Source: Candidatus Nomurabacteria bacterium GW2011_GWD2_36_14 (GTDB taxonomy: Bacteria; Patescibacteriota; Minisyncoccia; Phycocordibacterales; UBA9973). Taken from it: a stretch of 64,000 nt of DNA. The notes under the pieces are model-generated. The model was not told where the DNA came from, ran no database searches, and saw nothing but the letters and a program-made list of their open reading frames with translations. The position numbers and the translations under genes were made by a program. This document shows positions 1,922 through 61,203 of the stretch, one piece after another. The stretch lies in NCBI GenBank assembly GCA_000991405.1, contig LBRL01000001.1, forward strand, positions 527,989 to 591,988, read 5' to 3'. Position 1 is the stretch's first letter, and the number at the start of each line of letters is the position of its first letter.

Positions 1922-1940
1922 TAAAATGGTTTTTTAGAAA

Positions 1941-2060
1941 AAGTCGAAAGATAGTTCTTGAAGAGGGGCCGGCGGAGGCTGTCGAGCCGAGCAATGAGCA
2001 AATTTCTAGCAAGAAATTATGCGGACCCTCTGAGAGAAGCTATCTTTCGACTTTTTTATA
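1941..2060 (+). repeat. GC-rich repeat family B, copy 1 (hairpin element / likely intrinsic terminator of clpP)
   Basis: The outer inverted repeat aaagtcgaaagatag...ctatctttcgacttt encloses the GC-rich core gaggggccggcggaggctgtcgagccgagcaatgagcaaatttctagcaagaaattatgcggaccctctga, followed by a T-run. Near-identical cores are at 13969-14066, 32709-32810 and 59727-59825 (reverse complement). Confidence 0.8.
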
Positions 2061-3858: not shown

Positions 3859-4016
3859 AAAACGGCTTGCCCGCACACCCATTTTGCTGTAGCTTTTTTG
3901 TTCTGCCGACAGAATATTTACTTATTTTTGTATTTATTACCTAATATATAGAGTATTATTATTCGTTGTATTGAAAAAGCAGAATAACAGCAAAATGGGT
4001 GTGGGGGCTTGTTTTA
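3859..4016. repeat. Long-loop hairpin element family A, copy 1
   Basis: Left arm aaaacggcttgcccgcacacccattttgctgt and right arm acagcaaaatgggtgtgggggcttgtttt are reverse complements (stem about 20-25 bp with one mismatch) around an AT-rich loop of about 100 nt. Related copies are at 13455-13600, 59047-59200 and 61059-61203. Confidence 0.8.
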
Positions 4017-7455: not shown

Positions 7456-9015
7456 ATGAAACAAAAAAATATACAAATAGATGAGTCAAAAATTCCTGAT
7501 TATGTTACACGTGTAACAAACACACTCGAAAATGCTGGATTCGAGGCTTTTATTGTGGGTGGCTGTGTTCGTGATCTTATTTTGGGCAAAGAGCCGAAAG
7601 ATTGGGATATCACTACAAATGCCAAGCCCGAAGAAATAATCCCTTTATTTGAAAAGACTATATATGAAAACAAATTTGGGACAGTTGGAGTTTGTATGCC
7701 CGTTGCAGATGTTACACCCGCCGACGGATTACCTGTTGCGGACATGCATGAAACAGATAATAACATTACACATGAAACAAAGTACTATATTTTAGAGGTG
7801 ACTCCATATAGAACTGAAGCAAAATATAGCGATTTCCGTCATCCAGACGAAGTACAGTTTAGTGATAACATAGAAGATGATTTAAAAAGACGAGACTTCA
7901 CCATCAACGCTATGGCCTATAATATATCTAAAGGACATATTATTGACCTTTATAAAGGACAAGAAGATATAAAGGACAAAGTTATAAGAGCAGTAGGAAG
8001 CCCGAACGACCGCTTCCAAGAAGATGCCTTGCGCATGCTTCGAGCCATCAGATTCGGAACTACTTTAAATTTTGCCGTTTCATATGAAACAATGCAGGCT
8101 ATATCTGATAATTCCAATCTTATTAAAAACATATCAATGGAAAGAATCCGTGACGAATTCACTAAAATTATAATGTCTGACAATCCCATGACTGGAGTTG
8201 GCTTACTTCAAAAGCTTGGTTTACTAGAGTACATTATTCCTGAATTAGAAGAGGGTATAGGCTGTGAACAAAAAGGTGCACATATATATGACGTATGGGA
8301 ACACTTGCTTCACGCCCTTGAACACGCTGGGAGCAAGAATTGGCCCTTAGAAATAAGACTTTCTGCCTTGTTTCATGACATTGGAAAGCCTCGAACTAGA
8401 CGCTACGATGCTACAAAAAATGGAGGGAAGGGAAAGTATACATTCTTTGGTCATGAGGTAGTAGGATTTAAAATGACAAAAATGATAATGGAGAGATTAA
8501 AATATCCAAAAGATATAACTGAAAAAGTACTGAGTTTCACAAGATATCATATGTTCTTCTCAGACACAGATAAAATAAAACTTTCAGCGGTTAGAAGAAT
8601 AGTCCAAAATGTAGGGAGAGAAAATATTTGGGATCTTATGAAAGTTCGCGAATGTGACAGGGTAGGAATGAAAAAAGCAGAAGCTCCACATAGACTTCGT
8701 AAATATCATGCCATGATAGAGGAAGTTCTCCATGATCCTATCTCTGTAAGCCAACTAGCTATAGACGGTAAATATATGATAGAAACGTTACATGTGAAAC
8801 CAGGGCCAAGAATGGGTTGGATACTAAGTGCCTTACTTGAAGAGGTCCTAGATGATCCAACCAAGAATACAGAAGAACACCTATCAGAACTAGTAAAATC
8901 AATGGAAATACTAGGGAACAATGAGCTAAAGGCTCTTGGTGAAAGAGGCAAAGAAAAACGAGACGAACTAGAACAAGAAGAAATCAAGAAGTTACACATG
9001 AAACACGGGGTATAA
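7456..9015 (+). CDS. cca: tRNA nucleotidyltransferase (CCA-adding enzyme) with C-terminal HD domain
   Basis: 519 aa; class II nucleotidyltransferase head (GGCVRDLILGKEPKDWDITT...RRDFTINAMAY) and HD motif (LFHDIGKP). Consistent with all four nearby tRNA genes lacking an encoded CCA. Confidence 0.85.
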   Translation: MKQKNIQIDESKIPDYVTRVTNTLENAGFEAFIVGGCVRDLILGKEPKDWDITTNAKPEEIIPLFEKTIYENKFGTVGVCMPVADVTPADGLPVADMHETDNNITHETKYYILEVTPYRTEAKYSDFRHPDEVQFSDNIEDDLKRRDFTINAMAYNISKGHIIDLYKGQEDIKDKVIRAVGSPNDRFQEDALRMLRAIRFGTTLNFAVSYETMQAISDNSNLIKNISMERIRDEFTKIIMSDNPMTGVGLLQKLGLLEYIIPELEEGIGCEQKGAHIYDVWEHLLHALEHAGSKNWPLEIRLSALFHDIGKPRTRRYDATKNGGKGKYTFFGHEVVGFKMTKMIMERLKYPKDITEKVLSFTRYHMFFSDTDKIKLSAVRRIVQNVGRENIWDLMKVRECDRVGMKKAEAPHRLRKYHAMIEEVLHDPISVSQLAIDGKYMIETLHVKPGPRMGWILSALLEEVLDDPTKNTEEHLSELVKSMEILGNNELKALGERGKEKRDELEQEEIKKLHMKHGV

Positions 9016-9049
9016 TAAAATAGCTGATAAAATCAGCTATTTTATTAAT

Positions 9050-12295: not shown

Positions 12296-12313
12296 AGATG
12301 TATTTTAACACGA

Positions 12314-12410
12314 AATACAAATGTTCTCGAGCGAACCCTTACGGAGGCCGACGGGCCGAGTACGAGCAAAATTTTCAGTAGAAAATTATTGTGTGGTGAG
12401 TCCGAGAATA
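12314..12410. repeat. Repeat family B-prime (variant of B), copy 1
   Basis: gaacccttacggaggccgacgggccgagtacgagcaaaattttcagtagaaaattattgtgtggtgagtccgag; about 90% identical to the reverse complement of 32590-32680. Confidence 0.75.
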
Positions 12411-12427
12411 TTTGTATGGAGTGTTTA

Positions 12428-13420
12428 TTAATTCGAATGAAACTTCTTGTGTACATCTCGAAGTTGCTTGTCTGTAATATGCGTATATATCTGAGTTGTG
12501 GCAATGTTGGCGTGGCCGAGCATCATTTGCACAGAGCGAATGTCGGCTCCATTGGAGAGTAAGTCCGTGGCAAACGAGTGACGAATCACGTGCGGGGTAA
12601 CTTTCTTAGATATTCCAGCTTTTATAGCATAATACTTCACGATTCTCTCTATAGAACGAGGGGTTAATCTGCCATCCTTTCCGGCGGGTGAATTACTTTT
12701 TCCACTATTCCTAGAATACTGTATAAAAAGAGGCTCATCTAAGTCCTTTCTATTCTTTAGATACTCCCGTATTGCATCCTTGGCAGAGTTTGATAAGAAG
12801 ACTACTCGCACCTTTTCACCCTTTCCTCGTATAGAGAATTCATCTTTCGATAAATCCAAGTCTCTATTGAGCGAACAAAGCTCTGAAAGACGAAGGCCTG
12901 TAGAAAAGAATAATTCTAAAATAGCCTTATCTCGCAATACTTTTAAATTCCCATAGGTCAGACCTATGGACTCTATACTTTTACTTTTTGCCCCTAGGTC
13001 CGACCTAGGGGAAGATTCGGGAGCTTTTAAAAGTCTATTCAATTCATCAGTAGAAATAAGGTCGAGCGAACGCTCTTTTATCTTGGCTAAGTCTATCCTG
13101 TCAGGAGCGAGGGAAGTGATAGACCTCTTCATAAGGTATTTAAGGAAAGACCGAAGTGCTATAAGATGATAATTCTGGGTATTTTTCTTAAGCGTTCCTG
13201 ACTGTTGCCCACGAACCTTCACTCCAGGCTGACGATTAAGGAAAAGGCGGAATTCACGAATCTTGTCATCGGTAATATCACTGGGATCACTTATTTTAGC
13301 AAATTCAAAGAATCGACTTATATAGTGATCGTAGTTATTTACAGTCTTCAGACTATTTCCTTTCTCTATTTCTACATGCTCAAGGAATTCTCTTTTTAAT
13401 TGTTCAAGTTGTGTACTCAT
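12428..13420 (-). CDS. xerC: Tyrosine site-specific recombinase XerC/XerD, with an extra linker insertion of about 20 aa
   Basis: 330 aa; the catalytic-domain motifs (GLRLSEL, HVIRHSFATDLLSNGADIRSVQMMLGHANIATTQIYTHI) are present. The linker between LLKAP and RDKAIL is about 18-20 aa longer than usual and is encoded by a palindromic 61-bp element. Confidence 0.9.
   Translation of the reverse strand: MSTQLEQLKREFLEHVEIEKGNSLKTVNNYDHYISRFFEFAKISDPSDITDDKIREFRLFLNRQPGVKVRGQQSGTLKKNTQNYHLIALRSFLKYLMKRSITSLAPDRIDLAKIKERSLDLISTDELNRLLKAPESSPRSDLGAKSKSIESIGLTYGNLKVLRDKAILELFFSTGLRLSELCSLNRDLDLSKDEFSIRGKGEKVRVVFLSNSAKDAIREYLKNRKDLDEPLFIQYSRNSGKSNSPAGKDGRLTPRSIERIVKYYAIKAGISKKVTPHVIRHSFATDLLSNGADIRSVQMMLGHANIATTQIYTHITDKQLRDVHKKFHSN
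12951..13011. repeat. 61-bp nested-palindrome element (family C), in frame inside xerC
   Basis: ccataggtcagacctatgg-actctatacttttactttttg-cccctaggtccgacctagggg. The same architecture and length occur at 54628-54688 (ccataggtcggacctaggg...ccctaggtccgacctatgg). Confidence 0.8.
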
Positions 13421-13454: not shown

Positions 13455-13600
13455 GCCTTGCCCCCACACCTACTTTTTTATAGCTTTTAAATTGTGCCAC
13501 CATTTTATCAAAAATAGTATATTTTTAAGTATAGTCTACATTACTTTTAAGATAAATCCACAAAAAGCACAATAATAAAAAAGTGGGTGTGGGGGCTTGC
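13455..13600. repeat. Long-loop hairpin element family A, copy 2
   Basis: gccttgcccccacacctactttttt ... aaaaaagtgggtgtgggggcttgc; arms complementary with one wobble position; AT-rich loop of about 100 nt. Confidence 0.8.
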
Positions 13601-13634
13601 ATTTCTTCACAACTTGTGCTAATATACGCACACG

Positions 13635-13895: not shown

Positions 13896-13968
13896 CAAAA
13901 TCCTCTGACTTCGGTCAGAGTTTTTTGTTTCAAGATAGAGTATAATAGTGAAGTAAGTAAGCGTAAGT

Positions 13969-14066
13969 AAAAATAGTCTCTGAGAAGGGGCCGGCGGAGG
14001 TCGACGGACCGAGCAATGAGCAAATTTCTAGCAAGAAATTATGCGGACCCTTCGAGGAGAGCTATT
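13969..14066 (+). repeat. GC-rich repeat family B, copy 2
   Basis: aaaatagtctctgagaaggggccggcggaggtcgacggaccgagcaatgagcaaatttctagcaagaaattatgcggacccttcgaggagagctattttt. It follows the short rpsO terminator hairpin ctctgacttcggtcagag (13898-13926). Confidence 0.8.
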
Positions 14067-20378: not shown

Positions 20379-20421
20379 AAAGTATTTGTCTCATAATAAA
20401 CAATAAAATATTAATAAACCA

Positions 20422-20461
20422 AGTGTAACACTTTGCAACGGCCGTTTGTAAGTGTTACACT
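20422..20461. promoter_or_regulatory. 40-bp near-perfect palindrome P1 (candidate operator / insulator)
   Basis: agtgtaacactttgcaacggccgtttgtaagtgttacact; shares the 30-bp core AACACTT-N3-AACGGCCGTTTGTAAGTGTT with P2 at 21094-21133. Confidence 0.6.
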
Positions 20462-20467
20462 ATAGAA

Positions 20468-21055
20468 ATGAAGAAAAAGGCTCAAAATAATAAAACTACG
20501 TTTAAAAAAGAAAATCTTAAACAAGGAGCTCAAACCTTGGGTAATATACTACTTGCGGGTATAGCTATCGCTGGGATAGTAGGTGTCGCTACTGTCGCTC
20601 CAAATGCAATGCAATTGGTGAAATATTTTATACCAGAAGATGACATCAAGCGTCATTATAAATATAGGGCAAACCATAGTCTAAAAAAATTAATTACAGA
20701 TGGTTATATTCAAGAAAAAATAGTAAACGGAAGAAAAACATTTTCACTAACAAATAAAGGAAAATTAAGATATGAATCTCTTAAAGAAAAGAGGGTAACT
20801 AGATGGGATGGAAAGTGGAGACTTGTATCTTTTGATGTTTATGAAAAGAACAGAAACAAAAGAGACTTACTACGAAAAGAATTACAATCATATGGGTTTC
20901 AAATGATTCATCAAAGCACGTGGGCATATCCATATCCTTGTGATGAATATATTGCTTTACTAAAATCAGATTTATCTTTTGGTAAGAATGTTCAGTACAT
21001 GCTTGTAGAATACTTGGATATGCACATGGAATTAAAAAGACTTTTTGATTTATAA
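20468..21055 (+). CDS. PaaX-C-terminal-domain-like protein with an N-terminal TM segment
   Basis: 195 aa; RWDGKWRLVSFDVYEKNRNKRDLLRKELQSYGFQMIHQSTWAYP matches the PaaX C-terminal (VapD/Cas2-like fold) pattern W-x-L-V-x-F-D-hPE...LR..L...GF..L..S-hW. Confidence 0.5.
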   Translation: MKKKAQNNKTTFKKENLKQGAQTLGNILLAGIAIAGIVGVATVAPNAMQLVKYFIPEDDIKRHYKYRANHSLKKLITDGYIQEKIVNGRKTFSLTNKGKLRYESLKEKRVTRWDGKWRLVSFDVYEKNRNKRDLLRKELQSYGFQMIHQSTWAYPYPCDEYIALLKSDLSFGKNVQYMLVEYLDMHMELKRLFDL

Positions 21056-21093: not shown

Positions 21094-21133
21094 CTTGCAA
21101 CACTTACAAACGGCCGTTTGTAAGTGTTGCAAG
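21094..21133. promoter_or_regulatory. 40-bp perfect palindrome P2
   Basis: cttgcaacacttacaaacggccgtttgtaagtgttgcaag equals its own reverse complement; it lies between the convergent PaaX-like and TrmB-like genes. Confidence 0.6.
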
Positions 21134-21170
21134 TGGGCAAACACAATAAATGGGGTAAATAGTCATTATC

Positions 21171-22644: not shown

Positions 22645-24300
22645 ATGACAAAAGAAAATTGTAAAACTTGTGAGAAGGAGTTTGTGATAAGGGATGAAGA
22701 TCTTGTTTTTTATGAACAAATGAAAACTGTTCCTCCTTTATATTGCCCAGAGTGTAGAATGGCGAGGCGTTTAATGTTTCGTAATGAAAGAACTTTATAT
22801 AAAAGAACTTGTGATTTATGTAAAAAGGATATGGTTACACTTTACACTCCCGAATCACCATATGTTGTTTACTGTAGTAAATGTTGGTGGAGTGATAATT
22901 GGAACCCAAAAGAGTTTGCGTTAGATTATAATCCCAATAAAAAATTCTTTGATCAATATAAAGAATTGCAACTAAAAGTTCCACGTTTAGGAATAATGGA
23001 AATCCAAAATGTAAGAAGTGAATACACAAATGGTTCAGCAGAAAATAAAGATTGCTATTTGGTTTTTGCTTCTGATTTTAATGAAGATTGTTTATACGGA
23101 AGACTTATGCAAAGAAATAAACAGTCGATGGATTGTGCTTTCCTACACGAATCAGAGCTTTGTTATGAGTGTATAGATTGCCGAAAATGTTTCAAGTGTA
23201 TGTATTCTCTACAATGCCAAGATTCTACTGATTTATTGTTTTGTTATAATCTAAAAAATTCAAACAATTGTATTTTCTGCACAAATGGAAGAAATCTTTC
23301 AAATGCAATATTAAATATAAAATATACAAAAGAAGAATATGAAAAGAAAAAGACAGAAATATTAAAAAATTACGAAAGTATTGAACAGGCTAAAAAAGAA
23401 TTTGAAGAATTAAAAAGTAAAACTATTAAAAAATTCGCGACCCAGACGAAATGTCACAATGTCACTGGAGATTATTTACACAACTGCCAAGAAGGAGTGA
23501 GATTATTTGATACATATGATGCAAAAAATTGTTCCTATATGAAAGATATTGATGGTGCAATAGATAGTATGGATTGTAACAATGCTTATGATAAACCAGA
23601 GTTTATATATAATGTAATGGGGGCATTACAAGGAAGTAAGTTAAAAAATTCTGCTTTTGTCTTCTATTGTAATGAAATTGAATACTGTGATAATTGTCAT
23701 CATCTATCAAATGGTATTGGCTGTATTTCTGTACGAAAGGGGAATTACATGATTTTCAATAAAGAATATTCCAAAGAAGAATATATGGAGTTGAAAGAAA
23801 AAATAGAAGAACAGTTTAAAAAAGAAGGAATATTGGGACAATTCTTTTCACCTGAAGTTGCACCATTCGCTTATAATGAATCCTTAATTCATGATTTCTT
23901 TCCTCTATCTAAAGATGAAGCAATTAAAAGGGGTTACAAATGGCAAGACAAAACTACTGGAACCTTTGGTAAAGAAACGATTAAAAAAGGAGAAATTTCT
24001 AACTCTGTAAACGATGTCAATGAAAATATTTTAGATGAAGTATTGATTTGTGAATCATGTAACAAAAATTATAAAATAGTTGAAGCTGAATTAACTTTTT
24101 ATAAAAAAATGGGGCTTCCTATTCCTCATAAAGATTTTGAATGTAGACATGAAGATAGAATGAGGAAAAGAAACGGAATGAAATTGTATCATAGATCTTG
24201 TATGAAAGAAGGATGTGAAAATGAGTTTGAAACAACTTACAGCCCAGACAAAAAAGATGTCATATATTGTGAGAATTGCTATCAGAAGGAAATATATTGA
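22645..24300 (+). CDS. Cys-rich protein with duplicated terminal zinc-ribbon modules
   Basis: 551 aa with more than 40 Cys. N-terminal module: CKTCEKEF-x-I-x-DEDLVFYEQM-x-PPLYCPECRMARRLMFRNERTLYKRTC-x-C. C-terminal module: CESCNKNY-x-I-x-EAELTFYKKM-x-PIPHKDFECRHEDRMRKRNGMKLYHRSC...YCENC. A central run of CxxC repeats lies between them. Confidence 0.6.
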   Translation: MTKENCKTCEKEFVIRDEDLVFYEQMKTVPPLYCPECRMARRLMFRNERTLYKRTCDLCKKDMVTLYTPESPYVVYCSKCWWSDNWNPKEFALDYNPNKKFFDQYKELQLKVPRLGIMEIQNVRSEYTNGSAENKDCYLVFASDFNEDCLYGRLMQRNKQSMDCAFLHESELCYECIDCRKCFKCMYSLQCQDSTDLLFCYNLKNSNNCIFCTNGRNLSNAILNIKYTKEEYEKKKTEILKNYESIEQAKKEFEELKSKTIKKFATQTKCHNVTGDYLHNCQEGVRLFDTYDAKNCSYMKDIDGAIDSMDCNNAYDKPEFIYNVMGALQGSKLKNSAFVFYCNEIEYCDNCHHLSNGIGCISVRKGNYMIFNKEYSKEEYMELKEKIEEQFKKEGILGQFFSPEVAPFAYNESLIHDFFPLSKDEAIKRGYKWQDKTTGTFGKETIKKGEISNSVNDVNENILDEVLICESCNKNYKIVEAELTFYKKMGLPIPHKDFECRHEDRMRKRNGMKLYHRSCMKEGCENEFETTYSPDKKDVIYCENCYQKEIY

Positions 24301-24396
24301 GTAATTAATAATTAATAATTAATAATGTAATATTAAAATGCCTCGGCGTCGCCGAGACATTTTAATTCGTAATTATTAATTATTAATTATTAATTA
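24301..24396. terminator. Terminator hairpin flanked by inverted (TTAATAA)n arrays
   Basis: (taattaa)x4 - ttaaaatgcctcggcgtcgccgagacattttaa - (ttattaa)x4, between convergent genes. Confidence 0.65.
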
Positions 24397-27570: not shown

Positions 27571-30318
27571 GTGAATATTATGGACAATTTTTTTGCAAAA
27601 CATAACACTAATGAAGAAAACCCCTCAGCCAAAAATGGTGGCCAAACAGTGAACCCAACAGAAGAAAACAATCCTATTGAAAAAGAATTACCATTGGGAT
27701 TAGAAACAGAAGTTTCCGCCCCTTTATCCAAAAAGATAGATGAATATGACGAAAAGCTAAAAACAGCACGAAAACACAATCCATCTAGAAGGAAATTAAA
27801 GTCCATACTCAATAACCTGAAATCTATTCAAAAATTAGCAATTTTTGGATTTGAATCTGGTCAAAAGGAAGTAAAAGATAGTCCAGAAAATATAAAAGCA
27901 GAGCTGTTAGAAAAAATAGCTAATTTATCTGAGGCAGAAGATTTGAAGGAACTTTCTGAAATTCTGAAAAAGAAGCTGGGGATAAATGAACTAGAAAAAA
28001 TAGATCAAGAAGATAAAAAATTATCAAATAACAACGATACAATATTATTAAATGTTTCAACGTCAAAAAATATGGAAGATAAAAAAATAAGAGCTACAGA
28101 AAAAACAAAAGCAACCAATGCCGAGAACAAAAAGTCTAAAATTTTAACATCTATTGAATCGGCTAGAGAGGAATTGATTGAAAAATTATACGACACTTCT
28201 TTACTTAATTATAAAAAAATTAACTCAATAAAGAATGTATTATGGCAACTAGAAAAAGTTAGGGATGAATTAATTGAGAATAATCTATCAAACATAACTT
28301 CAATTAATATAGACGAATTGCCAGATGATATTAATAAACAAGATATATCAAATATTAATAATCTACTTGTCGGACGTAAGACAAAAACAGAGAATAAAAC
28401 TACAAATAAGATATTGGTTGATTCTGCAAGGGAAGAAGTTTTGAGTGCATTTCCTTCTGTTGAAACACCAGCTACAGTAGAAGAAACTCCAACTGCGACA
28501 AATAAAATTAAATCTTTCGGTAGTATAACAGGGGGTCGCCCTGTATTCTATACAGAAGAGGAATTAAAAGAATTAAATGAAAAAAATACAGAAACATCAC
28601 AGGGGACTATACCTAAAAAGGAAAGTTGGTGGGGGAAAATAGGGCATAAAACTTTCGAGTTCTTTACAAAGAAGCCTACAGTAAATCCAGAAAACCCAAT
28701 TAACTTCATGGCTCCAACTGGAAGCCTTCCTGCTTCTCCTGACCAAAAGATAAATACACCTCCAGAAAAGAAGAAAGTTGCCACAGAAATAGAGGAAGAG
28801 AAAGAAACTGAAAACCCAATTAACTTCATGGCTCCAACTGGAAGTCAGCCATTCTTTCCTAGTGAGAAAGAAGGAATAACCTTGCCACCAGAAAATAAGA
28901 ATACTTCGAAAGTAAATGAGGGAACTGAAAACCCAATTAATTTTCTGGCTCCAACTGGAAGTCATCCATTCTTTTATAATGATCAAGAGGGAATAACTTT
29001 ACCACCAGAAAATAAAGGTAGTGAAAATGAAGCGGGTAATAAAGAAACTGAAAACCCAATTAACTTCATGGCTCCAACTGGAAGTCAGCCGTTTCTATAC
29101 AACAAAGAAGCACCCGTCCAAACTGATGAAACTGAAACAATAAAAGACCAAAAAATACCTTGGAGTGCTAAATCCATAATGTCTAGCTTATACAAAGGTA
29201 TTGATAGTATTCCAGTAGTAAATAGGCTTGTTGCAAAAACAGGTATTGCTTATAATCAATTTTTTATAGATAGGAAAGAAGAAAAATCTGTAAATCTTAA
29301 AGACAAAATGGATACTTTAGATTTAGACCTAAAAAATCTAAGTGGAGCAAAATCAAAGATACAAACTGTTATAGGAAATCTAAAAGATCATGGTGAAGTT
29401 GGATATAACTCATTCCTATTAGAAATAAAAAGAATTGAAGAGCAAGAAAGGAAAATTGCAAACAAGAAAGATACACTTCAGACTAGGATTGAGACAAGGG
29501 AAAATTCAATAAAACTTTATGTAAACAAAAGAGACTCTATTGCAGATAAGATGATAAATAAATATAATGAGAAACTTTCTCCAATAGAAGAAAATCTCAA
29601 AAATTTAGAAACAGAAAAAGATATATTGGATATTTACAGACTTGGCAAAGAAGCAGAAATAGAAGAGATACAGGAAAAAACAAACTTCTTGATAAAACAA
29701 AAAGAATTAGTAATGGAAAGTCTCTTGTTGCGGGGGATTCCGGCTGAAAGAGCAAATGGCCACAAATCTATGAAAAAATTCAATAAAGAATTATCTTCTA
29801 TGAAGAATACAATATCGGATATAAAACACAATCTTGCAAGGAGAGAAACTGCAATAAATGACAAAATTGAAAAAGCTGATAAAAAAGCAAACCCTTATAG
29901 AGACCGCAGAAATGAATTCATACGTGTCACAAATAGAAAACCTATAAAAATAGAACTAAATGAGAGAGTTAATTTGAATGAAAACACCAACAGAGAAGAA
30001 ATGGTAGTACACACAAGAAAAGACGAAGAGGAAATCGAGTCTAAAGAAAACACATCTTCTAAGATCGATATGGGAAGTGATTATTCAGGATATGAAAATA
30101 ATCCTAAAATGTTTGAAGCAATTACAGAATTCAATAAGTATGTGAAATCAATAAGCTCTGATACTTCGTTATTAATAGATGAAGAAAAAATATTTAAGAT
30201 AATAAATCAAGAAACGAGAGTTACTACAAATAAATTAAAAGAAATTATCTTGGCTTACTACAAATTTACAAAGGTCCCAGAAAGTAAGTATAAAAACTTA
30301 GTAGATAATATTAAATAA
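27571..30318 (+). CDS. Large coiled-coil repeat protein with 4x ENPINFMAPTGS repeats
   Basis: 915 aa, Lys/Glu-rich; four tandem copies (units of about 114-126 bp at 28690-29090) encode ENPINF(M/L)APTGS(L/Q/H)P; the C-terminal half is coiled-coil. Confidence 0.6.
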   Translation: MNIMDNFFAKHNTNEENPSAKNGGQTVNPTEENNPIEKELPLGLETEVSAPLSKKIDEYDEKLKTARKHNPSRRKLKSILNNLKSIQKLAIFGFESGQKEVKDSPENIKAELLEKIANLSEAEDLKELSEILKKKLGINELEKIDQEDKKLSNNNDTILLNVSTSKNMEDKKIRATEKTKATNAENKKSKILTSIESAREELIEKLYDTSLLNYKKINSIKNVLWQLEKVRDELIENNLSNITSINIDELPDDINKQDISNINNLLVGRKTKTENKTTNKILVDSAREEVLSAFPSVETPATVEETPTATNKIKSFGSITGGRPVFYTEEELKELNEKNTETSQGTIPKKESWWGKIGHKTFEFFTKKPTVNPENPINFMAPTGSLPASPDQKINTPPEKKKVATEIEEEKETENPINFMAPTGSQPFFPSEKEGITLPPENKNTSKVNEGTENPINFLAPTGSHPFFYNDQEGITLPPENKGSENEAGNKETENPINFMAPTGSQPFLYNKEAPVQTDETETIKDQKIPWSAKSIMSSLYKGIDSIPVVNRLVAKTGIAYNQFFIDRKEEKSVNLKDKMDTLDLDLKNLSGAKSKIQTVIGNLKDHGEVGYNSFLLEIKRIEEQERKIANKKDTLQTRIETRENSIKLYVNKRDSIADKMINKYNEKLSPIEENLKNLETEKDILDIYRLGKEAEIEEIQEKTNFLIKQKELVMESLLLRGIPAERANGHKSMKKFNKELSSMKNTISDIKHNLARRETAINDKIEKADKKANPYRDRRNEFIRVTNRKPIKIELNERVNLNENTNREEMVVHTRKDEEEIESKENTSSKIDMGSDYSGYENNPKMFEAITEFNKYVKSISSDTSLLIDEEKIFKIINQETRVTTNKLKEIILAYYKFTKVPESKYKNLVDNIK

Positions 30319-30625: not shown

Positions 30626-32563
30626 ATGCAATATATTGATTCATTAAATGACAAGCAAAAAGAGGCAGTCCTGTATACGGATGGGCCTCTTTTGATAGTG
30701 GCGGGGGCGGGGGCGGGGAGGACGAAAACTATAACTCACAGGATAATACACGTGATACATGAGGGGGTGAATCCTTCTTCGATATTGGCAGTCACTTTCA
30801 CGAACAAAGCGGCAAAAGAAATGCGGGATAGAGTCATGACACTACTAGAAGATAAAGTTCATGGGGTTAGTCAGCCATTTAACCATGCAGGGGTACCATT
30901 CGTATCTACCTTTCACTCTCTAGGAGTCCACATTATAAAAGAGAATGCCCACCTAATAGGATTGACGAAGCATTTCGCAATTATCGACGAGAGTGATGCT
31001 GTATCTATTATTAAAGATGTGATGAAAGAGCACGATATAGATCCAAAGCAACATGAACCAAGGAAGATTAAAAGTATAATATCGAAAGCAAAAGGCGACT
31101 TCGTAACTCTCGAAAGCTACAGGGCCAACGTCAAAAGTAGTATTCAAAGCATTGTTGCTTTAATCTGGGGAGGATATGAAGCGAGACTTAAAAAGGAAAA
31201 GGGTCTAGACTTCGATGATCTACTTTTGGAATCCGTTTTGATTTTGAGAAAGTTTCCAGAGGTTAAAAATAAATATCAAGAAAGATGGCAGTACGTGCAC
31301 ATAGACGAGTACCAAGATACCAACGAAGTTCAATACGAGATGACAAAGCTTCTGGTCGGGAAAGAAGAAAATATTTGTGTAGTAGGGGATACAGATCAAA
31401 ATATTTATAGTTGGAGAGGAGCCAATATAAAGAACATGCTTCACTTTGAGAAAGATTATCCGAACGCAAAGATAGTCATGCTTGAGCAGAATTATCGTTC
31501 AACGGGGAAAATAATTGAAGCAGCAAATAATGTGATAGAGAAGAATCAATACCGAGTACCTAAAACTTTATTTACTAAAAATGTGGATGGCGAGCAGATA
31601 GTGGTCTGCGAAGCATACGACGAAGTCAGCGAAGCAGACTTCGTTGCTAGAGAGATAGATGAACTCCTAAAGAAAAATAAACCTGAGGATATAGCTATAC
31701 TTTATAGGGCGAATTTTCAATCGCGTGTGCTAGAAGAAGCTCTTCTTTCTAGACAAATACCCTACCAAGTACTGGGGGTGAAATTCTTTGAAAGAAAAGA
31801 AATCAAAGACATTCTCTCTTATGTTAAAGCCAGTTTAAATAAAGAAAGCCTAAGTGATATCAAAAGAATTATAAATACACCAGCGAGGGGGATAGGGAAA
31901 GTAACACTAACGAAAATATTTGCAGGACTCTCTGCAGAACTTCCAGCTGGAATGCAAATTAAAATAAATAAATTCTATGCATTACTCGAAGATATTCACG
32001 AGTATATAGATACACACAAGCCATCGGAAATAGTAAAATACATAATTGAGAAAAGTGGATTAGAAGAGGAACTTTCGCATGGCACAAATGAAGAAATGGA
32101 GAGGCTTGAAAACATGAAAGAGCTGGTGACACTCGCAATAAAATATGATGCACAAGACGATGGAATAGAGAAACTACTTGAAGATGCATCGCTCTCTAGC
32201 GACCAAGATAGTCTGATACCAAGCGAGAAAAATAAAAAGAACGGAGTGAGACTTATGACTGTGCATGCATCGAAAGGACTTGAGTTCAAATACGTGTTCG
32301 TGACAGGATTGGAGCAAGATCTCTTTCCACATGCTCGTACTGGTACTGGTACAAAAGAAGATAAAGAGGAAGAGCGCCGTCTCTTCTATGTGGCTCTCAC
32401 TCGTGCCGAGAAAAAATTGTATTTAACTTATGCATCACTTCGTACAATCTTCGGTATGAAGCAAGTAAACACTCCAAGTGAATTCATTTACGACATCCCC
32501 GCACACCTTACAGACTTCACACAAAGTTACTCGAGGGGAGGGGAGAAAATTGTTTATCTTTAA
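30626..32563 (+). CDS. pcrA: UvrD/PcrA/Rep-family ATP-dependent DNA helicase
   Basis: 645 aa; Walker A AGAGRTKT (a GxGKT variant), TFTNKAAKEM, DEYQDTN, VGDTDQNIYSWRGA, YRS, TVHASKGLEF, VALTRA helicase motifs. Confidence 0.9.
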   Translation: MQYIDSLNDKQKEAVLYTDGPLLIVAGAGAGRTKTITHRIIHVIHEGVNPSSILAVTFTNKAAKEMRDRVMTLLEDKVHGVSQPFNHAGVPFVSTFHSLGVHIIKENAHLIGLTKHFAIIDESDAVSIIKDVMKEHDIDPKQHEPRKIKSIISKAKGDFVTLESYRANVKSSIQSIVALIWGGYEARLKKEKGLDFDDLLLESVLILRKFPEVKNKYQERWQYVHIDEYQDTNEVQYEMTKLLVGKEENICVVGDTDQNIYSWRGANIKNMLHFEKDYPNAKIVMLEQNYRSTGKIIEAANNVIEKNQYRVPKTLFTKNVDGEQIVVCEAYDEVSEADFVAREIDELLKKNKPEDIAILYRANFQSRVLEEALLSRQIPYQVLGVKFFERKEIKDILSYVKASLNKESLSDIKRIINTPARGIGKVTLTKIFAGLSAELPAGMQIKINKFYALLEDIHEYIDTHKPSEIVKYIIEKSGLEEELSHGTNEEMERLENMKELVTLAIKYDAQDDGIEKLLEDASLSSDQDSLIPSEKNKKNGVRLMTVHASKGLEFKYVFVTGLEQDLFPHARTGTGTKEDKEEERRLFYVALTRAEKKLYLTYASLRTIFGMKQVNTPSEFIYDIPAHLTDFTQSYSRGGEKIVYL

Positions 32564-32589
32564 AATAAAAAAAACATTACGCAAAAATT

Positions 32590-32810
32590 ATTCTCGGACT
32601 CACCACACAATAAAATTCTGCTGAATTTTTTGCTCGCACTCGGTCCGTCGACCTGCGTGAGGGTTCGCTCGAGAACATTTTTTACTACATGTTTTTAGAA
32701 AACGTAAACAAATAGTCTTATCAGAGGGGCCGGCGGAGGTCGACGGACCGAGCAATGAGCAAATTTCTAGCAAGAAATTATGCGGACCCTCTGAGAAGAG
32801 CTATTTGTTG
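32590..32810. repeat. Composite of B-prime (reverse) followed by B (forward), a large inverted pair
   Basis: 32590-32680 is the reverse complement of the 12314-12410 type; 32709-32810 is a canonical B copy. The two halves are mutually complementary over more than 25 nt (gctcgcactcggtccgtcgacc / ggtcgacggaccgagcaatgagc). Confidence 0.75.
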
Positions 32811-32837
32811 GAGTTTTTAGTATACTAATACAATAAT

Positions 32838-33776
32838 ATGATTCACAAAGCGAAAAAATCTTTAGGTCTAAATAAATTTTCAGTAGAAAATTTATCGCCC
32901 GATTTTTCTTCCCATAGGGCCAAGAAAAATTTAGGGCAGAATTTCTTGAAGTCTAAAGAGGCACTTTTCAAGATGTGTGAGGCTGGGGGAGTGAGTGATA
33001 AGGACGTGATAGTGGAAATAGGCCCCGGGAAGGGAGCCCTGACTGAGAAACTACTAGAAAAGGCTTATAAAGTAATAGCTATAGAGAAAGACCGTGATTT
33101 AATCGATATTTTAAAGGATAAGTTCGCAAATGAGATAAAAAATGGCCCTAATTTGTCCAACAAGACAAACGGGCAATGTAAATTAACCCTTTTAAATGAA
33201 GATATATTGGGCTTTGACCCTGCAAAACATGGACTAAAAGAAGGTGGATACAAAATAATTGCCAATATCCCTTATAATATAACGGGCTCTATTATAAGAA
33301 GATTCCTATCTGAAGTAAATAAGCCTATAACTATGACCCTTTTGGTACAAAAGGAGGTGGCTGAACGAATTGTAGCTAGAGATGGCAAAGAAAGCATCCT
33401 TTCCTTGAGTGTGAAAGCGTATGGAATGCCTTCATATATAATGAAAGTTCATAAGAGATTCTTCTCCCCCTCGCCCAAGGTGGACTCAGCGATAGTCTCT
33501 ATAAATGATATTTCCGGCAAACTTTTCAAAGACAAATCGACAGAAGAGTCATTCTTCACTCTCATAAAGGCAGGATTTGCTCATAAAAGAAAAGTCCTCA
33601 GGAAAAATTTAGAAGACATTAACATTAAGGAAGTCGAACCCTCCTCTTCGGCAGGTAAACTTCCTAAGATAGATGAAATATTTAAAAAATTAGGAATAAA
33701 TCCCAAAGCTAGAGCAGAAGACGTGCCGTTCTCAAAATGGGTAGAAATGAATGACTATTTTAGAGAATTAATCTAA
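32838..33776 (+). CDS. rsmA: 16S rRNA (adenine1518/1519-N6)-dimethyltransferase
   Basis: 312 aa; LGQNFL, IEIGPGKGALT, ANIPYNIT motifs of KsgA/RsmA. Confidence 0.9.
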   Translation: MIHKAKKSLGLNKFSVENLSPDFSSHRAKKNLGQNFLKSKEALFKMCEAGGVSDKDVIVEIGPGKGALTEKLLEKAYKVIAIEKDRDLIDILKDKFANEIKNGPNLSNKTNGQCKLTLLNEDILGFDPAKHGLKEGGYKIIANIPYNITGSIIRRFLSEVNKPITMTLLVQKEVAERIVARDGKESILSLSVKAYGMPSYIMKVHKRFFSPSPKVDSAIVSINDISGKLFKDKSTEESFFTLIKAGFAHKRKVLRKNLEDINIKEVEPSSSAGKLPKIDEIFKKLGINPKARAEDVPFSKWVEMNDYFRELI

Positions 33777-42567: not shown

Positions 42568-42990
42568 ATGCAATTTAAAGTACCACAATTTATAGATATA
42601 GAAGATAAGATATTTGGTCCTTTCACCTTTCGCCAATTCGCGTACCTTATAGGTGGAGGGGGGATAGTATACGTCTTGTACAGACTACTGCCATTCTGGA
42701 TCAGTATCTTCCTCATACTTCCCATCATAGGCCTGACTATATGCCTAGTCTTTGTAAAGATAAATACTAAACCTTTCGAATACTACCTAGAAGCGGCATT
42801 TACTTACTTCATATCTAGTAAGCTTTATATCTGGAAGCAAAGATTGGTCAAAAAGAGTGACAAGCTAGAAGAGGTAAGTGCCCTTACAACAATGTCCAAC
42901 GTACCCATGCTGACAGAGAATAAACTCAAGGATTTATCGTGGAGCTTAGATATTCAAGACAAGAAAGATAATAAAATAATTAATAGTTAA
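42568..42990 (+). CDS. Small two-TM protein, VirB3-like (ConD/TcpE/PrgI-type) by position and topology
   Basis: 140 aa; two hydrophobic helices (FAYLIGGGGIVYVLYRLL; ISIFLILPIIGLTICLVFV). Its start overlaps the stop of the preceding gene. This is the typical position upstream of VirB4 in Gram-positive T4SS operons. Confidence 0.4.
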   Translation: MQFKVPQFIDIEDKIFGPFTFRQFAYLIGGGGIVYVLYRLLPFWISIFLILPIIGLTICLVFVKINTKPFEYYLEAAFTYFISSKLYIWKQRLVKKSDKLEEVSALTTMSNVPMLTENKLKDLSWSLDIQDKKDNKIINS

Positions 42991-43006
42991 GAATTAATAA
43001 TTAATA

Positions 43007-43357
43007 ATGAAGGGGAATAATATTATAAGGGAAAAAAGTTATAGTTTTAGTCTTAAAATTATTAAGATATATCAAGAATTAACTCAAGAAAAGAAGGAAT
43101 TCATACTATCAAAACAATTAATTCGTTCTGGTACATCTATAGGTGCAAATATCGAAGAATCAACAGGTGCCCAGTCTAAAAATGACTTCATCGCTAAATT
43201 GAGTATCTCGTACAAAGAAACATGGGAAACTCTTTATTGGTTAAGACTTTTGACCGATAGTGGTTTCCTTAATAAGAAACAGTCTGATATTCTTATTTTT
43301 GACTGCGAAGAGTTACTTAAAATACTAGGAGCCATACTAAAAACCTCCAAATCCTAG
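43007..43357 (+). CDS. Four-helix-bundle protein (23S rRNA intervening-sequence protein / Avd-like family)
   Basis: 116 aa; SYSFSLKIIKIY...LIRSGTSIGANIEES...FIAKLSISYKETWETLYWLRL matches the TIGR02436/PF05635-type family. It is flanked by (TTAATAA)n arrays at 42970-43009 and 43364-43464. Confidence 0.7.
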   Translation: MKGNNIIREKSYSFSLKIIKIYQELTQEKKEFILSKQLIRSGTSIGANIEESTGAQSKNDFIAKLSISYKETWETLYWLRLLTDSGFLNKKQSDILIFDCEELLKILGAILKTSKS

Positions 43358-43468
43358 GGTTTCATTATTAATTATTCAATGTGTGATATAATAAAAAGGT
43401 AATTAAAGTGTTTTGATTTATGTTTCTAAATTATTAATTATTAATTCTTAATTATTAATTACTTACCT

Positions 43469-51034: not shown

Positions 51035-51049
51035 TCACCTATTGTAGCA

Positions 51050-51158
51050 TAATAATTAATAATTAAAAATTAATAATTAATAATGTAAAAAACCTAAGCA
51101 AAGCTTAGGTTTTTAGTGTATTGTGTTTAAATTATTAATTATTAATTATTAATTAATT
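51050..51158. terminator. Hairpin flanked by inverted (TTAATAA)n arrays
   Basis: (taataat)n - gtaaaaaacctaagcaaagcttaggttttt - (attatta)n; the same architecture as 24301-24396. Confidence 0.6.
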
Positions 51159-54688: not shown

Positions 54689-54963
54689 CCCTTAATATTA
54701 TGGATTACAATCATATAAAAAATTATTTAGAAAAGTTTAAAAACCTCCTTTTTACCAAAGAAGAAATATATCAAATAGTTTCTAGGGCAATAGAAGACAA
54801 TATACATCTTAAAATTGAAACCAAAAATATACAAATAAAACCACCTTTTTTATACATAAAAGCCTCTCCATTAGTTCGTAATGAGATAATGATAAATAAA
54901 GAAAAAATCCTGAAAGATATATTACTCTTATCTCCTCAAAGTAATTTAAAAGATATAAGATAA
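54685..54963 (+). CDS. Small hypothetical protein, possibly DUF721/YaaB-like
   Basis: 92 aa immediately downstream of dnaN, where DUF721-family genes commonly sit; the similarity is weak and judged by eye only. Confidence 0.3.
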   Translation: MALNIMDYNHIKNYLEKFKNLLFTKEEIYQIVSRAIEDNIHLKIETKNIQIKPPFLYIKASPLVRNEIMINKEKILKDILLLSPQSNLKDIR

Positions 54964-54988
54964 TTAATAATTAATAATTATAAATACC

Positions 54989-57460
54989 TTAATTAATTGC
55001 CAAATTAGTTGTTGTTTCTCCGGAATTGCCATTTATATCATATCCAACTACACGAATAGTATTGCTATTTGTAATATCGGGAATATCTCTCGGGATAAAA
55101 GAAACAAAATAGGGGGCATTTTTTAATGTTTTTAAATATGTACTATTTATAAACACATCAATTTTTTTAATCTGGGTTTGCCCTGTTGAGCTGACGACAA
55201 AATTAATATCACTATCTTTAGTATAAGAGATCCCAGAAATACCATTGATTGATAATACTGGCTTACTTTGAATAGTAGTATTTGTATAATTTATAATTGG
55301 ATTATTTTGCGCTGAGATGATACCATACTTGGCGTAATTATTAGCCCACCACTTTTGTACTCCATACTCCCAGTTGGTGTATTGTGAGTCGCTCGTTCTA
55401 CCACCAGAAGTGCCACTATTTAATGGATGCTCCTTGTCTAGCCAATACAAAATAGTATGAACATTGGTGACAGAAACTTCTTGTCCACCACTTGGCATAA
55501 ATGTAGCTCCTCCTTGCCAAAAACCACGAAGGACAGGAGGAATGGAAGTATCTATAGGGTCTGGCTTTTCAAAATATTCTACTGGCTTGTCTTTCAAACC
55601 TTCTGACATTACAGCGTTCCATATAGGCCCAGCAAGGGCTGCACCACCCTTTCCCATCGGTTCGTTATTATTGTTACCAACCCAAACCCCAACAGCAAGG
55701 GAGGGTGTGTATCCAATTGTCCATGCATCCTTGTTATCATTTGTCGTTCCTGTCTTCACTGCCACTTCTCTTCCTGGGATATTTAAAATAGAGTTAGCTC
55801 TAAAAGTAGGAGCACGAGCTGCATCATCTGAGAGAATGTCTGATAGGATGTTTGTAGTGTTTGGATTTAGAACTTGGTACTGTCTGTCTTCATACTTTTC
55901 TAAAACATTTCCATTTGAATCTTCAATACTTAGAATCTCGTTGTATGGGTGACGAATACCACCTGTGGCGAAGACACCATAAGCAGAAGTCATATCAAGT
56001 AGAGTCGTTTCCCCACCCCCGATAACAAGAGAAAGTCCATATCGAGTAGGGTCTGTAAGTGTAGTAATACCAAGGTCGTTTGCCATTTTTAAAGAATCTT
56101 TAATACCAACTAAATAAAGGAGCTTAACAGCAACTACGTTTATTGATTGTGCCAGAGCCTGCTTTAGTGTTAATGGGCCCCTGTTGTCGTTATCATAATT
56201 GCTTGGAGTATAACAAGTTGCACTTTTGTGCCCTGCCAAAGGCTTGCCTGTAGGATCACAAGAAGCATTGAATTCAGTTTTAACATCAAACAGGGTTGTA
56301 TCGGCTGTATAACCCTTCTCAAAAGCTGCAGCGTAGACGATAGGCTTAAATGAAGATCCTGGCTGACGTGAAGCTGTCGTGACATTGAAGTTGCCATCGA
56401 CGGTCTTGTCGAAATAATTCCTTGAGCCTACCATGGCCAATATCTGGCCAGTCTTGGGGTCTATCACTACAATAGCAGCATTTTTACCTTTCCAATTCTT
56501 TTCATTTTCTTTTGATTTTTCTAAAGCTATTTCCTCGGATTTTTTTTGAAGATTATAATCAAGAGTTGTAATAACTTTCAACCCACCATCTTCAAGTGCA
56601 TTTATACCATACTTATTTTCTAAATAATCTTTTACAAAGAAGACAAAGTGAGGGGCAGCGATATTCATAGGTCGTTCAGGCTGGAAGACGACAACTTCAT
56701 TTTTTGCTTTTGTATAAGTATTCTCATCTATGAACTTGAGGTCTAGCATTCTTTTCAAGACTAGATTCTTTCTCTCGTCCAACCTATCCTTGTTCTTTCT
56801 ATATGGAGAATAATAAGTTGGACCATTGGGAATCGCCGCCATATAAGCCGACTCAGCTAAAGTTAATTCCAAAGGCTTCTTATCGAAGAAGGCTTTAGAT
56901 GCTTCTTCGACACCATAAATATTTCCACCATAAGGAGCTTCGTTCAAATATAGGGTGAGGATGTCATTTTTACTCATAATCTTCTCAAGCTTGATAGCCA
57001 AGATCCACTCCTTCATCTTTCTTTTGATAGTTACTTCAGAAGTGAGTAAAGTATTCTTGATAAGTTGCTGGGTTATAGTTGAACCTCCTGTAACCCTTTT
57101 ACCTGTAAGTTTTGCCCAAATAGTTCCACGAATAATTGAACTTATGCGGATTCCTTTGTGTTGGTAGAATTCTCCGTCTTCTATGGCAACTGTGGCGTTC
57201 TTGATATTGGTGCCTATCTCTTCGTAAGGTATAACGGTTCTCTTGATATTGTCGTGGACATTGTATAAGAGGATCTCGCCAGTACGGTCGTATATCTTCG
57301 TTGAACTCTGTATCTTTCTTTCAGTAAAGAGCTTAAAGTCTGGTAATTCCAAGGTACTAACCCACACAACAACAAGCCCAGTCAATATTATTCCAACCCC
57401 AATTAATAAAAATAATGCGTTTTTAAGTATTTTTAATGACATAAATGAATGTTTCTTCAT
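54989..57460 (-). CDS. Class A penicillin-binding protein (bifunctional glycosyltransferase/transpeptidase) with a C-terminal extension
   Basis: 823 aa; N-terminal TM; GT51 motifs (EDGEFYQHKGI, GGSTITQQL); transpeptidase SxxK (SSFKP), SxN and KTG (KTGTT) motifs. Confidence 0.9.
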   Translation of the reverse strand: MKKHSFMSLKILKNALFLLIGVGIILTGLVVVWVSTLELPDFKLFTERKIQSSTKIYDRTGEILLYNVHDNIKRTVIPYEEIGTNIKNATVAIEDGEFYQHKGIRISSIIRGTIWAKLTGKRVTGGSTITQQLIKNTLLTSEVTIKRKMKEWILAIKLEKIMSKNDILTLYLNEAPYGGNIYGVEEASKAFFDKKPLELTLAESAYMAAIPNGPTYYSPYRKNKDRLDERKNLVLKRMLDLKFIDENTYTKAKNEVVVFQPERPMNIAAPHFVFFVKDYLENKYGINALEDGGLKVITTLDYNLQKKSEEIALEKSKENEKNWKGKNAAIVVIDPKTGQILAMVGSRNYFDKTVDGNFNVTTASRQPGSSFKPIVYAAAFEKGYTADTTLFDVKTEFNASCDPTGKPLAGHKSATCYTPSNYDNDNRGPLTLKQALAQSINVVAVKLLYLVGIKDSLKMANDLGITTLTDPTRYGLSLVIGGGETTLLDMTSAYGVFATGGIRHPYNEILSIEDSNGNVLEKYEDRQYQVLNPNTTNILSDILSDDAARAPTFRANSILNIPGREVAVKTGTTNDNKDAWTIGYTPSLAVGVWVGNNNNEPMGKGGAALAGPIWNAVMSEGLKDKPVEYFEKPDPIDTSIPPVLRGFWQGGATFMPSGGQEVSVTNVHTILYWLDKEHPLNSGTSGGRTSDSQYTNWEYGVQKWWANNYAKYGIISAQNNPIINYTNTTIQSKPVLSINGISGISYTKDSDINFVVSSTGQTQIKKIDVFINSTYLKTLKNAPYFVSFIPRDIPDITNSNTIRVVGYDINGNSGETTTNLAIN

Positions 57461-59701: not shown

Positions 59702-59726
59702 TAGTGTATAAATTTTTTTTCATTAA

Positions 59727-59825
59727 AATAGCTCTTCTCAGAGGGTCCGCATAATTTCTTGCTAAAAATTTGCTCATTGCTCGGTCCGTCGACCTCCGCC
59801 GGCCCCTCTGATAAGACTATTTTAA
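59727..59825 (-). repeat. GC-rich repeat family B, copy 4 (reverse orientation, downstream of ruvB on the minus strand)
   Basis: aaaatagctcttctcagagggtccgcataatttcttgctaaaaatttgctcattgctcggtccgtcgacctccgccggcccctctgataagactatttt is the reverse complement of the B consensus. Confidence 0.8.
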
Positions 59826-59840
59826 CTACAAAAATTGAAT

Positions 59841-60833: not shown

Positions 60834-61058
60834 TATTTTCTTAGTATGCTATACTCTCCACAGAAATTTGATACGTTTAATTATAGCATTTTCGCGAAGA
60901 GAACATAAATCTCTAAGCAATCGGCCCCGTGCTCTATATATGTGCATAGGACGTCTTGGTTTATATTTATATTTACTGTGGCTATCCTGTAATCATATGT
61001 TACTTTGCTAGCGCATGCTTCCAAAGGATTGTTTAGAGATTTATGTTTTTTTAATTTT

Positions 61059-61203
61059 ACCCGCACACTCAACATGCCGTAGCTTTTTTGTTCTGCCTAC
61101 AGAATTTTTATTTAAAATTTATATTTTTTACTTAATATAATAAGAGTATTATTATATTTTATTTTGAAAAAGCAGAATAACGGCATATTGAGTGTGCGGG
61201 TTT
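61059..61203. repeat. Long-loop hairpin element family A, copy 4
   Basis: acccgcacactcaacatgccgtagcttttttgttctgcc ... ggcagaataacggcatattgagtgtgcgggttt; its internal sequence is highly similar to copy 1; its right arm abuts the pilB stop codon. Confidence 0.8.

Follow-up and report, generated by a model that had tools for sequence, protein, structure and literature searches.

An apparently undescribed family of self-folding palindromic repeats in terminator slots of CPR genomes

CPR bacteria have genomes that are among the smallest and most streamlined known. Downstream of clpP in one of them, Candidatus Nomurabacteria, lies a GC-rich sequence that folds on itself, and similar sequences recur across the 64-kb stretch of DNA analyzed here (64,000 nucleotides; hereafter the window). 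How does a tiny, streamlined genome come to carry about one GC-rich structured repeat per 10 kb, six in 64 kb, with relatives in several CPR classes? And is such a unit a terminator, an RNA gene, or a piece of mobile DNA?

The earlier note on this DNA had described four near-identical copies (B) and two diverged ones (B′), and all six were recovered at their reported positions by pattern matches, a repeat search, and a covariance model based on all six, with none expected by chance.

1938..2057, plus strand (covariance-model core 1945-2048): B1, after clpP; 118 bits; -54.7 kcal/mol, z -7.5
12307..12425, plus strand (core 12314-12417): B′1, between a XerC/D-type recombinase gene and an exonuclease III-family gene; 79 bits
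13966..14070, plus strand: B2, upstream of a NYN-domain gene; 120.5 bits
32570..32696, minus strand (core 32582-32685): B′2, directly after the helicase stop codon; 73 bits
32699..32818, plus strand (core 32706-32809): B3, between a UvrD-type helicase gene and an rRNA adenine dimethylase gene; 118 bits
59716..59834, minus strand (core 59723-59826): B4, between ruvB and ruvC; 116 bits

A 37-base core pattern matched at 13985, 32724, and 59772 (minus strand) with at most one mismatch (0 expected), and a looser core pattern matched all six sites and nothing in 100 shuffles. In the repeat search of the window, B4 was 99% identical to B3 over 97 nt, 89% to B2 over 103 nt, and 85% to B1 over 99 nt; B′1 and B′2 shared 88% identity over 95 nt. 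Run over the window, the covariance model returned these six copies only, at 116 to 120 bits for B (B2 the highest) and 73 to 79 bits for B′, the next-best scores being antisense self-hits of 20 to 26 bits. None of the six copies lies inside a gene. The flanking genes proved to be those named earlier (ClpP, S15, UvrD-type helicase, and RuvB), and further neighbors encode RNase Y, a NYN-domain protein, an rRNA adenine dimethylase, RuvC, a XerC/D-type recombinase, and an exonuclease III-family protein. The copies are GC-rich relative to their surroundings, as had been claimed (43 to 50% GC), but the window is 36% GC and not 33%. B′1 is antisense to both of its flanking genes, and B′2 and B3 form a divergent pair, 5′ end to 5′ end. 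The XerC/D-type tyrosine recombinase gene (12428-13420, minus strand) ends 11 nt from B′1, an arrangement that is conserved in locus L143.

Other repeats occur in the window. A second, unrelated palindromic family of about 150 nt is present at 3867-4013 (after rny), 13458-13601 (before rpsO), and 61057-61206 (after ruvB), each less than 2 kb from a B or B′ copy. Its GC-rich ends, GCCCGCACACCCA ... TGGGTGTGGGGGC, surround an AT-rich interior, and each copy folds into one long hairpin of -48 to -64 kcal/mol. Runs of the TAATTAATAATTAATAAT type occur as inverted pairs at 24290-24396, 42972-43464, 51048-51155, and 54949-55001, where they flank short intergenic hairpins or short ORFs. Two similar perfect palindromes of 36 to 41 nt (TGTAACACTT..CGGCCG..AAGTGTTACA), at 20419-20459 and 21096-21136, bracket an ORF at 20468-21055. 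In addition, in-frame tandem repeats of 117 to 123 nt lie at 28690-29138 within a 915-residue ORF (27571-30318), a sign of a repetitive, probably surface, protein.

Each B or B′ copy folds into a long imperfect stem that carries on top a three-way junction with two small hairpins. The window copies fold at -36 to -55 kcal/mol (z-scores relative to shuffled sequence, -4.4 to -7.5), and the outer stem reported around the copies is real. The whole unit measures about 100 to 130 nt and consists of a variable outer helix, a stem of about 20 bp, and the conserved three-way junction. The P1 and P0 arms are inverted repeats of 20 to 30 bp, the outermost part of which varies among near-identical copies, and many copies hold a 3 × 3 internal loop of the 5′-GUA / 5′-GNA type. 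Hairpin P2 is closed by a short helix, above which come an internal loop of GGA/GA, a helix of 4 bp (GGUC/GACC, GGCC/GGCC, or GGCU/AGCC), and a GNCG loop; its pattern reads CG[G/C]A, 4-bp helix, GNCG loop, return of the helix, GAG. P3 is an A/U-rich helix of 7 to 8 bp whose loop reads AGCA or AGUA. In some variants one more hairpin, GAUUCACCAGAAUC, stands between P3 and the 3′ strand of P1. Compensatory changes in P1, P2, and P3 set B apart from B′.

The outer flanks behave differently from the core: near-identical cores carry differing yet always self-complementary outer flanks. The B1 core is enclosed by an extra 13-bp stem, AAAAAGTCGAAAG / CTTTCGACTTTTT (the enclosure is also given as AAAAAGTCGAAAG / CTTTCGAC), which is followed by six Ts. 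The outer helix of B3 is AAAAC/GUUUU with a GU/GGA internal loop, whereas that of B4 is UUUUU/AAAAA despite the 99% identity of the two cores. The GUUUU(U) tails of B3 and B′1 are part of the outer helix. Self-complementarity extends past the ends of the model, as the flanks form duplexes of -6.96 kcal/mol on average, compared with -3.80 kcal/mol for mismatched partners (p ~1e-18).

How widely is this unit distributed, and has it been seen before? A loose-pattern scan of genome contigs gave mostly chance matches in GC-rich genomes, the true homologues being L073 (Paceibacterota), L092 (Saccharibacteria), and L045 (Minisyncoccia) only. A stricter core pattern found at least 100 metagenome loci, mostly from groundwater and sediment, within which the covariance model made 118 matches; none of the matches listed in this metagenome scan was on a viral contig. 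The junction core of about 55 nt is kept across CPR classes, and decayed or truncated copies exist as well (L073, L120). For 37 of 44 copies the nearest relative was another locus, usually in another genome, which rules out within-genome homogenization as the rule and indicates distinct subfamilies common to several genomes. A profile search against 1.84 billion cluster representatives returned mainly noise from repetitive proteins and three short ORFs. A search of Rfam 15, which the earlier note had proposed as a check, identified the element with no known family: at gathering thresholds only four tRNAs passed in the window, and for the B′/B pair (32500-32900) an E-value limit of 10 admitted only spurious microRNA and lncRNA matches. 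No known ribozyme in Rfam 15 (hammerhead, twister, twister-sister, pistol, hatchet, HDV-like) matched the element. By eye, the junction does not fit the hammerhead core (CUGANGA / GAA). A GC-rich subfamily with conserved flanks was checked as a possible part of an rRNA or other known RNA gene and turned out not to be one. We found no description of the element in Rfam or in the literature searched. B and B′ belong to a large, apparently undescribed family of self-folding elements of about 100 to 130 bases, encountered so far in CPR bacteria, and a covariance model of the element could join the RNA and repeat annotation of CPR genomes.

Base pairing covaries across this family. Among the 118 relatives in the matches listed, 92% of the cells in model base pairs were paired, compared with 39 to 52% when the partner columns were slid by 1 to 3 positions, and 35 of the 36 pairs showed changes on both sides. 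This alignment was fitted to the covariance model, and the test was repeated with a structure-blind MAFFT alignment, which recovered P2 and P3 at 98% pairing, with at least two Watson-Crick types in 10 of 11 pairs. The search pattern itself imposes conservation on part of P2 and the following linker. Fifteen extra, pattern-free matches retain the CG(G/C)A-helix-GNCG-helix-GAG arrangement, the AGCA loop, and the A-U(G) after P3. Furthermore, the two strands of the unit are not equivalent. In 107 of 109 copies the sense strand folds more stably than its reverse complement, with a mean difference of 8.1 kcal/mol, and this advantage is equally large beside co-oriented and beside antisense genes. 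P1 contains 186 G-U pairs and 20 A-C mismatches, a count in which many pairs are inherited and not independent events. The bias points to a role for one strand of the element as RNA or single-stranded DNA, a role that a simple terminator hairpin would not need.

Comparison of orthologous sites shows that the element is gained, lost, inverted, or swapped for a member of another subfamily among close relatives. The slot 3′ of clpP is empty in L234, holds ordinary hairpin terminators in L236 and L235, a reversed element in L233, and the forward element in the window; farther downstream, the sequence TAGACAAAA...TTTTGGAGTAT is common to the window, L234, and L236. The slot 3′ of tsaD is similarly changeable. 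It consists of a 22-nt spacer only in L231, and in L232 of the plain hairpin AATAGCAGAG...CTCTGCTATT with a T-run behind it; in L227 the element stands forward, and in L226 the same element is reversed and includes the outer GGC/GCC helix and the GUA/GAA loop of the L227 element. The host T-run TTTTTGAATT after tsaD is kept in L232, L227, and L226. At the xerD-exoIII slot, the window carries B′ and L148 and L143 carry B-type cores, with orientation and outer flanks alike. The copies in L140 and L214 are orthologues of B3, and their flanks match those of B3 exactly. Units have also been copied between unrelated loci, as the near-identical cores of B3 and B4 stand in unrelated flanks. Repeats and ordinary terminators are thereby seen replacing one another at one slot. 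Comparison of filled with empty sites 3′ of clpP, 3′ of tsaD, and inside tsaD disclosed no consistent direct repeat of the kind left by target-site duplication; a possible AGCGA repeat at the TsaD copies was not seen elsewhere. Neither an autonomous element nor a transposase that shared the ends of the unit turned up in the 64-kb window and the short loci, and no parent insertion sequence was seen among the neighbors of 128 copies.

The earlier note had proposed a fixed orientation relative to transcription. Within the window this stands for B, since all four copies are co-oriented with the upstream gene, an agreement that would arise by chance in 1 of 8 cases (two-sided); the two B′ copies run antisense. 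Across the family the orientation is random. Simple ORF calls around the 128 copies gave 26 with both flanking genes co-oriented, 26 with both antisense, 19 between convergent genes, and 12 between divergent genes. No subfamily has a fixed orientation, and B′, antisense in the window, is mostly co-oriented elsewhere. In L233, the closest ClpP relative examined (ClpP 97% identical), the element after clpP is reversed. The equal counts and the reversed copies mean that the argument from fixed orientation fails. No recurring family of neighboring protein was found beside the 128 copies. Where family members are adjacent (gap 6 to 129 nt), their 5′ ends face each other in all eight pairs, which represent about four independent loci, and there was no tandem or tail-to-tail arrangement among the eight:

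window, 32582-32809
L073, 2220-2433
L140, 5683-5907
L193, 2864-3077
L199, 2648-2858
L207, 816-1154
L213
L214, 430-706

The earlier note had also named copies in random orientation or inside coding regions as findings that would refute its proposal, and both occur. In-frame copies are rare, about 5 of 128 family members, and lie in TsaD and RecG:

L125, 662-757, forward: in-frame copy in TsaD
L132, 4812-4909, forward: in-frame copy in TsaD, at the site used in L125
L204, 766-863, forward: in-frame copy in TsaD, at the same site again
L226, 3749-3844: in-frame copy at the TsaD site
L162, 5094-5191, reversed: in-frame copy at the same TsaD site
L186, 5967-6068: in-frame copy in RecG, in the reading frame of the forward TsaD copies

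The TsaD stretch between GGP and PRPM measures 186 nt when filled, 87 to 93 nt when only the 3′ arm is present (L227, L231), and 78 nt when empty (L230, L232), in a comparison of orthologues that are 75 to 82% identical. The 3′ arm kept in L227 and L231 might suggest an insertion in which the host flank served as template for the 5′ arm. Since the junctions show microhomology and L230 and L232 are truly empty, L227 and L231 are more likely partial deletions at microhomologies. In the orthologous TsaD copies, P2, the closing helix, and P3 are kept by compensatory changes and the encoded peptide varies, which indicates that nucleic-acid structure, and not the peptide, is under constraint. Selection to keep a frame open across the family is weak: 55% of the copies are open in the TsaD frame, compared with 8 to 32% for the other frames. 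An AlphaFold model of the filled TsaD is poor (mean pLDDT 61), the insert being coil below 50, compatible with a loop and not confidently folded. The element accounts for length variants of proteins such as TsaD, and it will mislead gene callers into spurious ORFs that run through it. A second TsaD indel of about 33 residues (columns 96-133 of alignment A4; for example, about 3220-3330 in L226) is independent of the element. This indel was considered as another palindromic repeat and rejected, its DNA being not notably palindromic (z about -1.5).

What role might the unit play where it usually stands? Members are almost always intergenic, in either orientation, at positions where relatives have ordinary hairpin terminators, such as the plain hairpins of L232, L236, and L235 at slots occupied elsewhere by the element. 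An A-run precedes the element on its 5′ side in 65 to 83% of cases, and a T-run follows it on the 3′ side in 57 to 70%, relative to a background of 38%; for copies between divergent genes the corresponding figure is 42%. The 12 copies between divergent genes occupy positions that call for no terminator. B2 follows the ordinary rpsO terminator (13903-13920) at a distance of 47 nt and is therefore not needed there as a terminator. The suggestion in the earlier note of a terminator or 3′-end hairpin thus keeps its footing in slot position, in the B1 stem with its six Ts, and in the moderate enrichment of A- and T-runs, and loses the fixed-orientation argument. Two plain hairpins were seen beside these cases. 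One lies between convergent genes at 9013..9047 (stem AATAAAATAGCTGAT / ATCAGCTATTTTATT, 12.6 bits), with stem ends AAAATAGC...GCTATTTT that equal the ends of the element's outer stem. The other, the plain terminator hairpin at about 2100-2135 in L232, has stem ends AATAGC...GCTATT, which are like the outer stem. Both may be element derivatives that lack the core, or a native type of hairpin that the element replaces.

We consider it probable, though well short of firm, that B and B′ represent a copy-and-replace family of palindromic repeats of CPR bacteria, comparable to MITEs, RPEs, and SPRITE, which brings a hairpin into terminator slots and functions there. Together with the flanking A/T runs, the unit would provide a stem for factor-independent termination or a hairpin that protects the 3′ end. 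Since the hairpin reads alike in both directions, it would be usable as a terminator in either orientation, and a role in termination or at 3′ ends would account for its being tolerated in tiny genomes. The core of the junction might be kept for propagation, as the recognition site of an enzyme, or for a role of the sense strand at the RNA level. The sense-strand bias, the excess of G-U pairs, and the compensatory changes in TsaD make a mere hairpin terminator or decaying selfish DNA an insufficient explanation. A bolder and rather unlikely version makes the core itself a functional module of RNA or single-stranded DNA, protein-binding or with a new catalytic fold, that spreads by overwriting hairpin tips. 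Selection would then keep the core at each locus, including inside essential genes, and overwriting the tips of existing hairpins would leave locus-specific, self-complementary flanks, making the unit a mobile, interchangeable "terminator cartridge."

The simplest competitor holds that the copies are ordinary intrinsic terminators that resemble each other through convergent sequence requirements. The placement of all window copies downstream of genes, flanks rich in A- and T-runs, and plain terminators at the same slots in relatives would suit it. However, 99% identity of B3 and B4 over 97 nt at unrelated loci contradicts convergence, and the junction core shared across classes, the copies within TsaD and RecG, and those between divergent genes also speak against it, so that we regard it as scarcely credible. 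A family of functional RNA genes or modules, in which the sense transcript of a protein-binding or catalytic three-way junction would be active and spread would be secondary, is unlikely but deserves more weight. It would account for the strong covariation that extends to orthologous TsaD copies, for a sense strand that is stabler regardless of gene orientation, and for G-U pairs far in excess of A-C mismatches. The conserved unpaired GGA/GA, GNCG, AGCA, and GUA/GNA 3 × 3 loops, seen also in pattern-free matches, the optional extra hairpins of some variants, as in many RNA families, and a core conserved across CPR classes fit it too. Yet half of the copies are antisense to both neighbors in an orientation that is random, and copies begin 10 to 30 nt from stop or start codons, which leaves no space for a conserved promoter; a simple promoter scan yielded nothing specific. 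In-frame copies within proteins, decayed and truncated copies, and the failure of any Rfam family, known ribozymes included, to match even at E up to 10 are further difficulties, and template switching between inverted-repeat arms at the DNA level could also yield apparent compensatory changes.

Mobilization as single-stranded DNA by a strand-specific enzyme, as for REP/REPIN-RAYT or IS200/IS605-derived palindromes, would place the importance of the fold in DNA. It would explain a strand asymmetry that is independent of transcription, and the consistently inverted adjacent pairs with facing 5′ ends recall REP doublets; the lack of apparent target duplication and the self-complementary flanks past the element agree with it. 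In contrast, the unit, with its three-way junction, is three times the length of a REP, a conserved cleavage motif of the GTAG type was not identified, and neither the surroundings of the copies nor the Pfam-annotated 20 kb around clpP showed a Y1/HUH transposase. This possibility therefore seems quite improbable to us, and a copy-and-replace family of palindromic repeats, acting as hairpins in terminator slots, remains our preferred reading.

Several known systems invite comparison with this family. Integron attC sites were considered and set aside: the neighbors are housekeeping genes and not a cassette array beside intI, and the attC ends (RYYYAAC / GTTRRRY) are approached by AAAC...GTT in one subfamily only, which does not fit the full consensus. 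REPs are simple hairpins of 20 to 40 nt with a conserved GTAG end. Like REP, BIME, and REPIN sequences, the CPR elements are extragenic palindromes downstream of genes, with inverted pairs and strand-specific structure. However, the CPR unit is a three-way junction of 100 to 130 nt and not a hairpin of REP size with the conserved end motif, and no RAYT gene was seen near the copies. An intrinsic bidirectional terminator offers a closer functional parallel, with its A-run, stem, and T-run between genes and the exchange with plain hairpins at orthologous positions. Nevertheless, such a terminator needs only a short GC-rich hairpin, and termination does not explain the 55-nt core and the near-identical copies.

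Bacterial MITEs such as SPRITE, BOX, and RUP of Streptococcus pneumoniae, Correia elements, and ERIC cluster beside or inside one another, and SPRITE resembles a rho-independent terminator (PMC10969869). Similarly, the CPR elements are small, non-coding, multi-copy, and intergenic, with stably folding transcripts; they stand in terminator slots, and adjacent pairs occur. At 100 to 130 nt they stay below the limit of about 500 bp and code for no transposase of their own, and their arms of 20 to 30 bp correspond to terminal inverted repeats. Dispersal and presence/absence are likewise found, with six copies in 64 kb and empty, filled, and inverted sites in relatives. They differ in spanning class-level lineages and not a single genus, and in that no target-site duplication or parent insertion sequence was identified at the sites and neighbors compared.

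The Rickettsia palindromic elements (RPEs) are repeats of about 100 to 150 bp in a reduced genome, mostly intergenic and also inserted in-frame in unrelated housekeeping proteins, with an unknown mobilizing mechanism and no known transposase partner (PMC10969869). The CPR element, also mostly intergenic and palindromic and in-frame in TsaD and RecG, is likened to them as a kind of element and not as a member, the host being Ca. Nomurabacteria and not Rickettsia. Its in-frame copies are rare, and only 55% of all copies are open in that frame. To our knowledge, RPEs have not been described as having a conserved, covarying three-way junction. Alongside Rickettsia, the CPR family gives a second, independent example of the in-frame entry of palindromic repeats into essential proteins.
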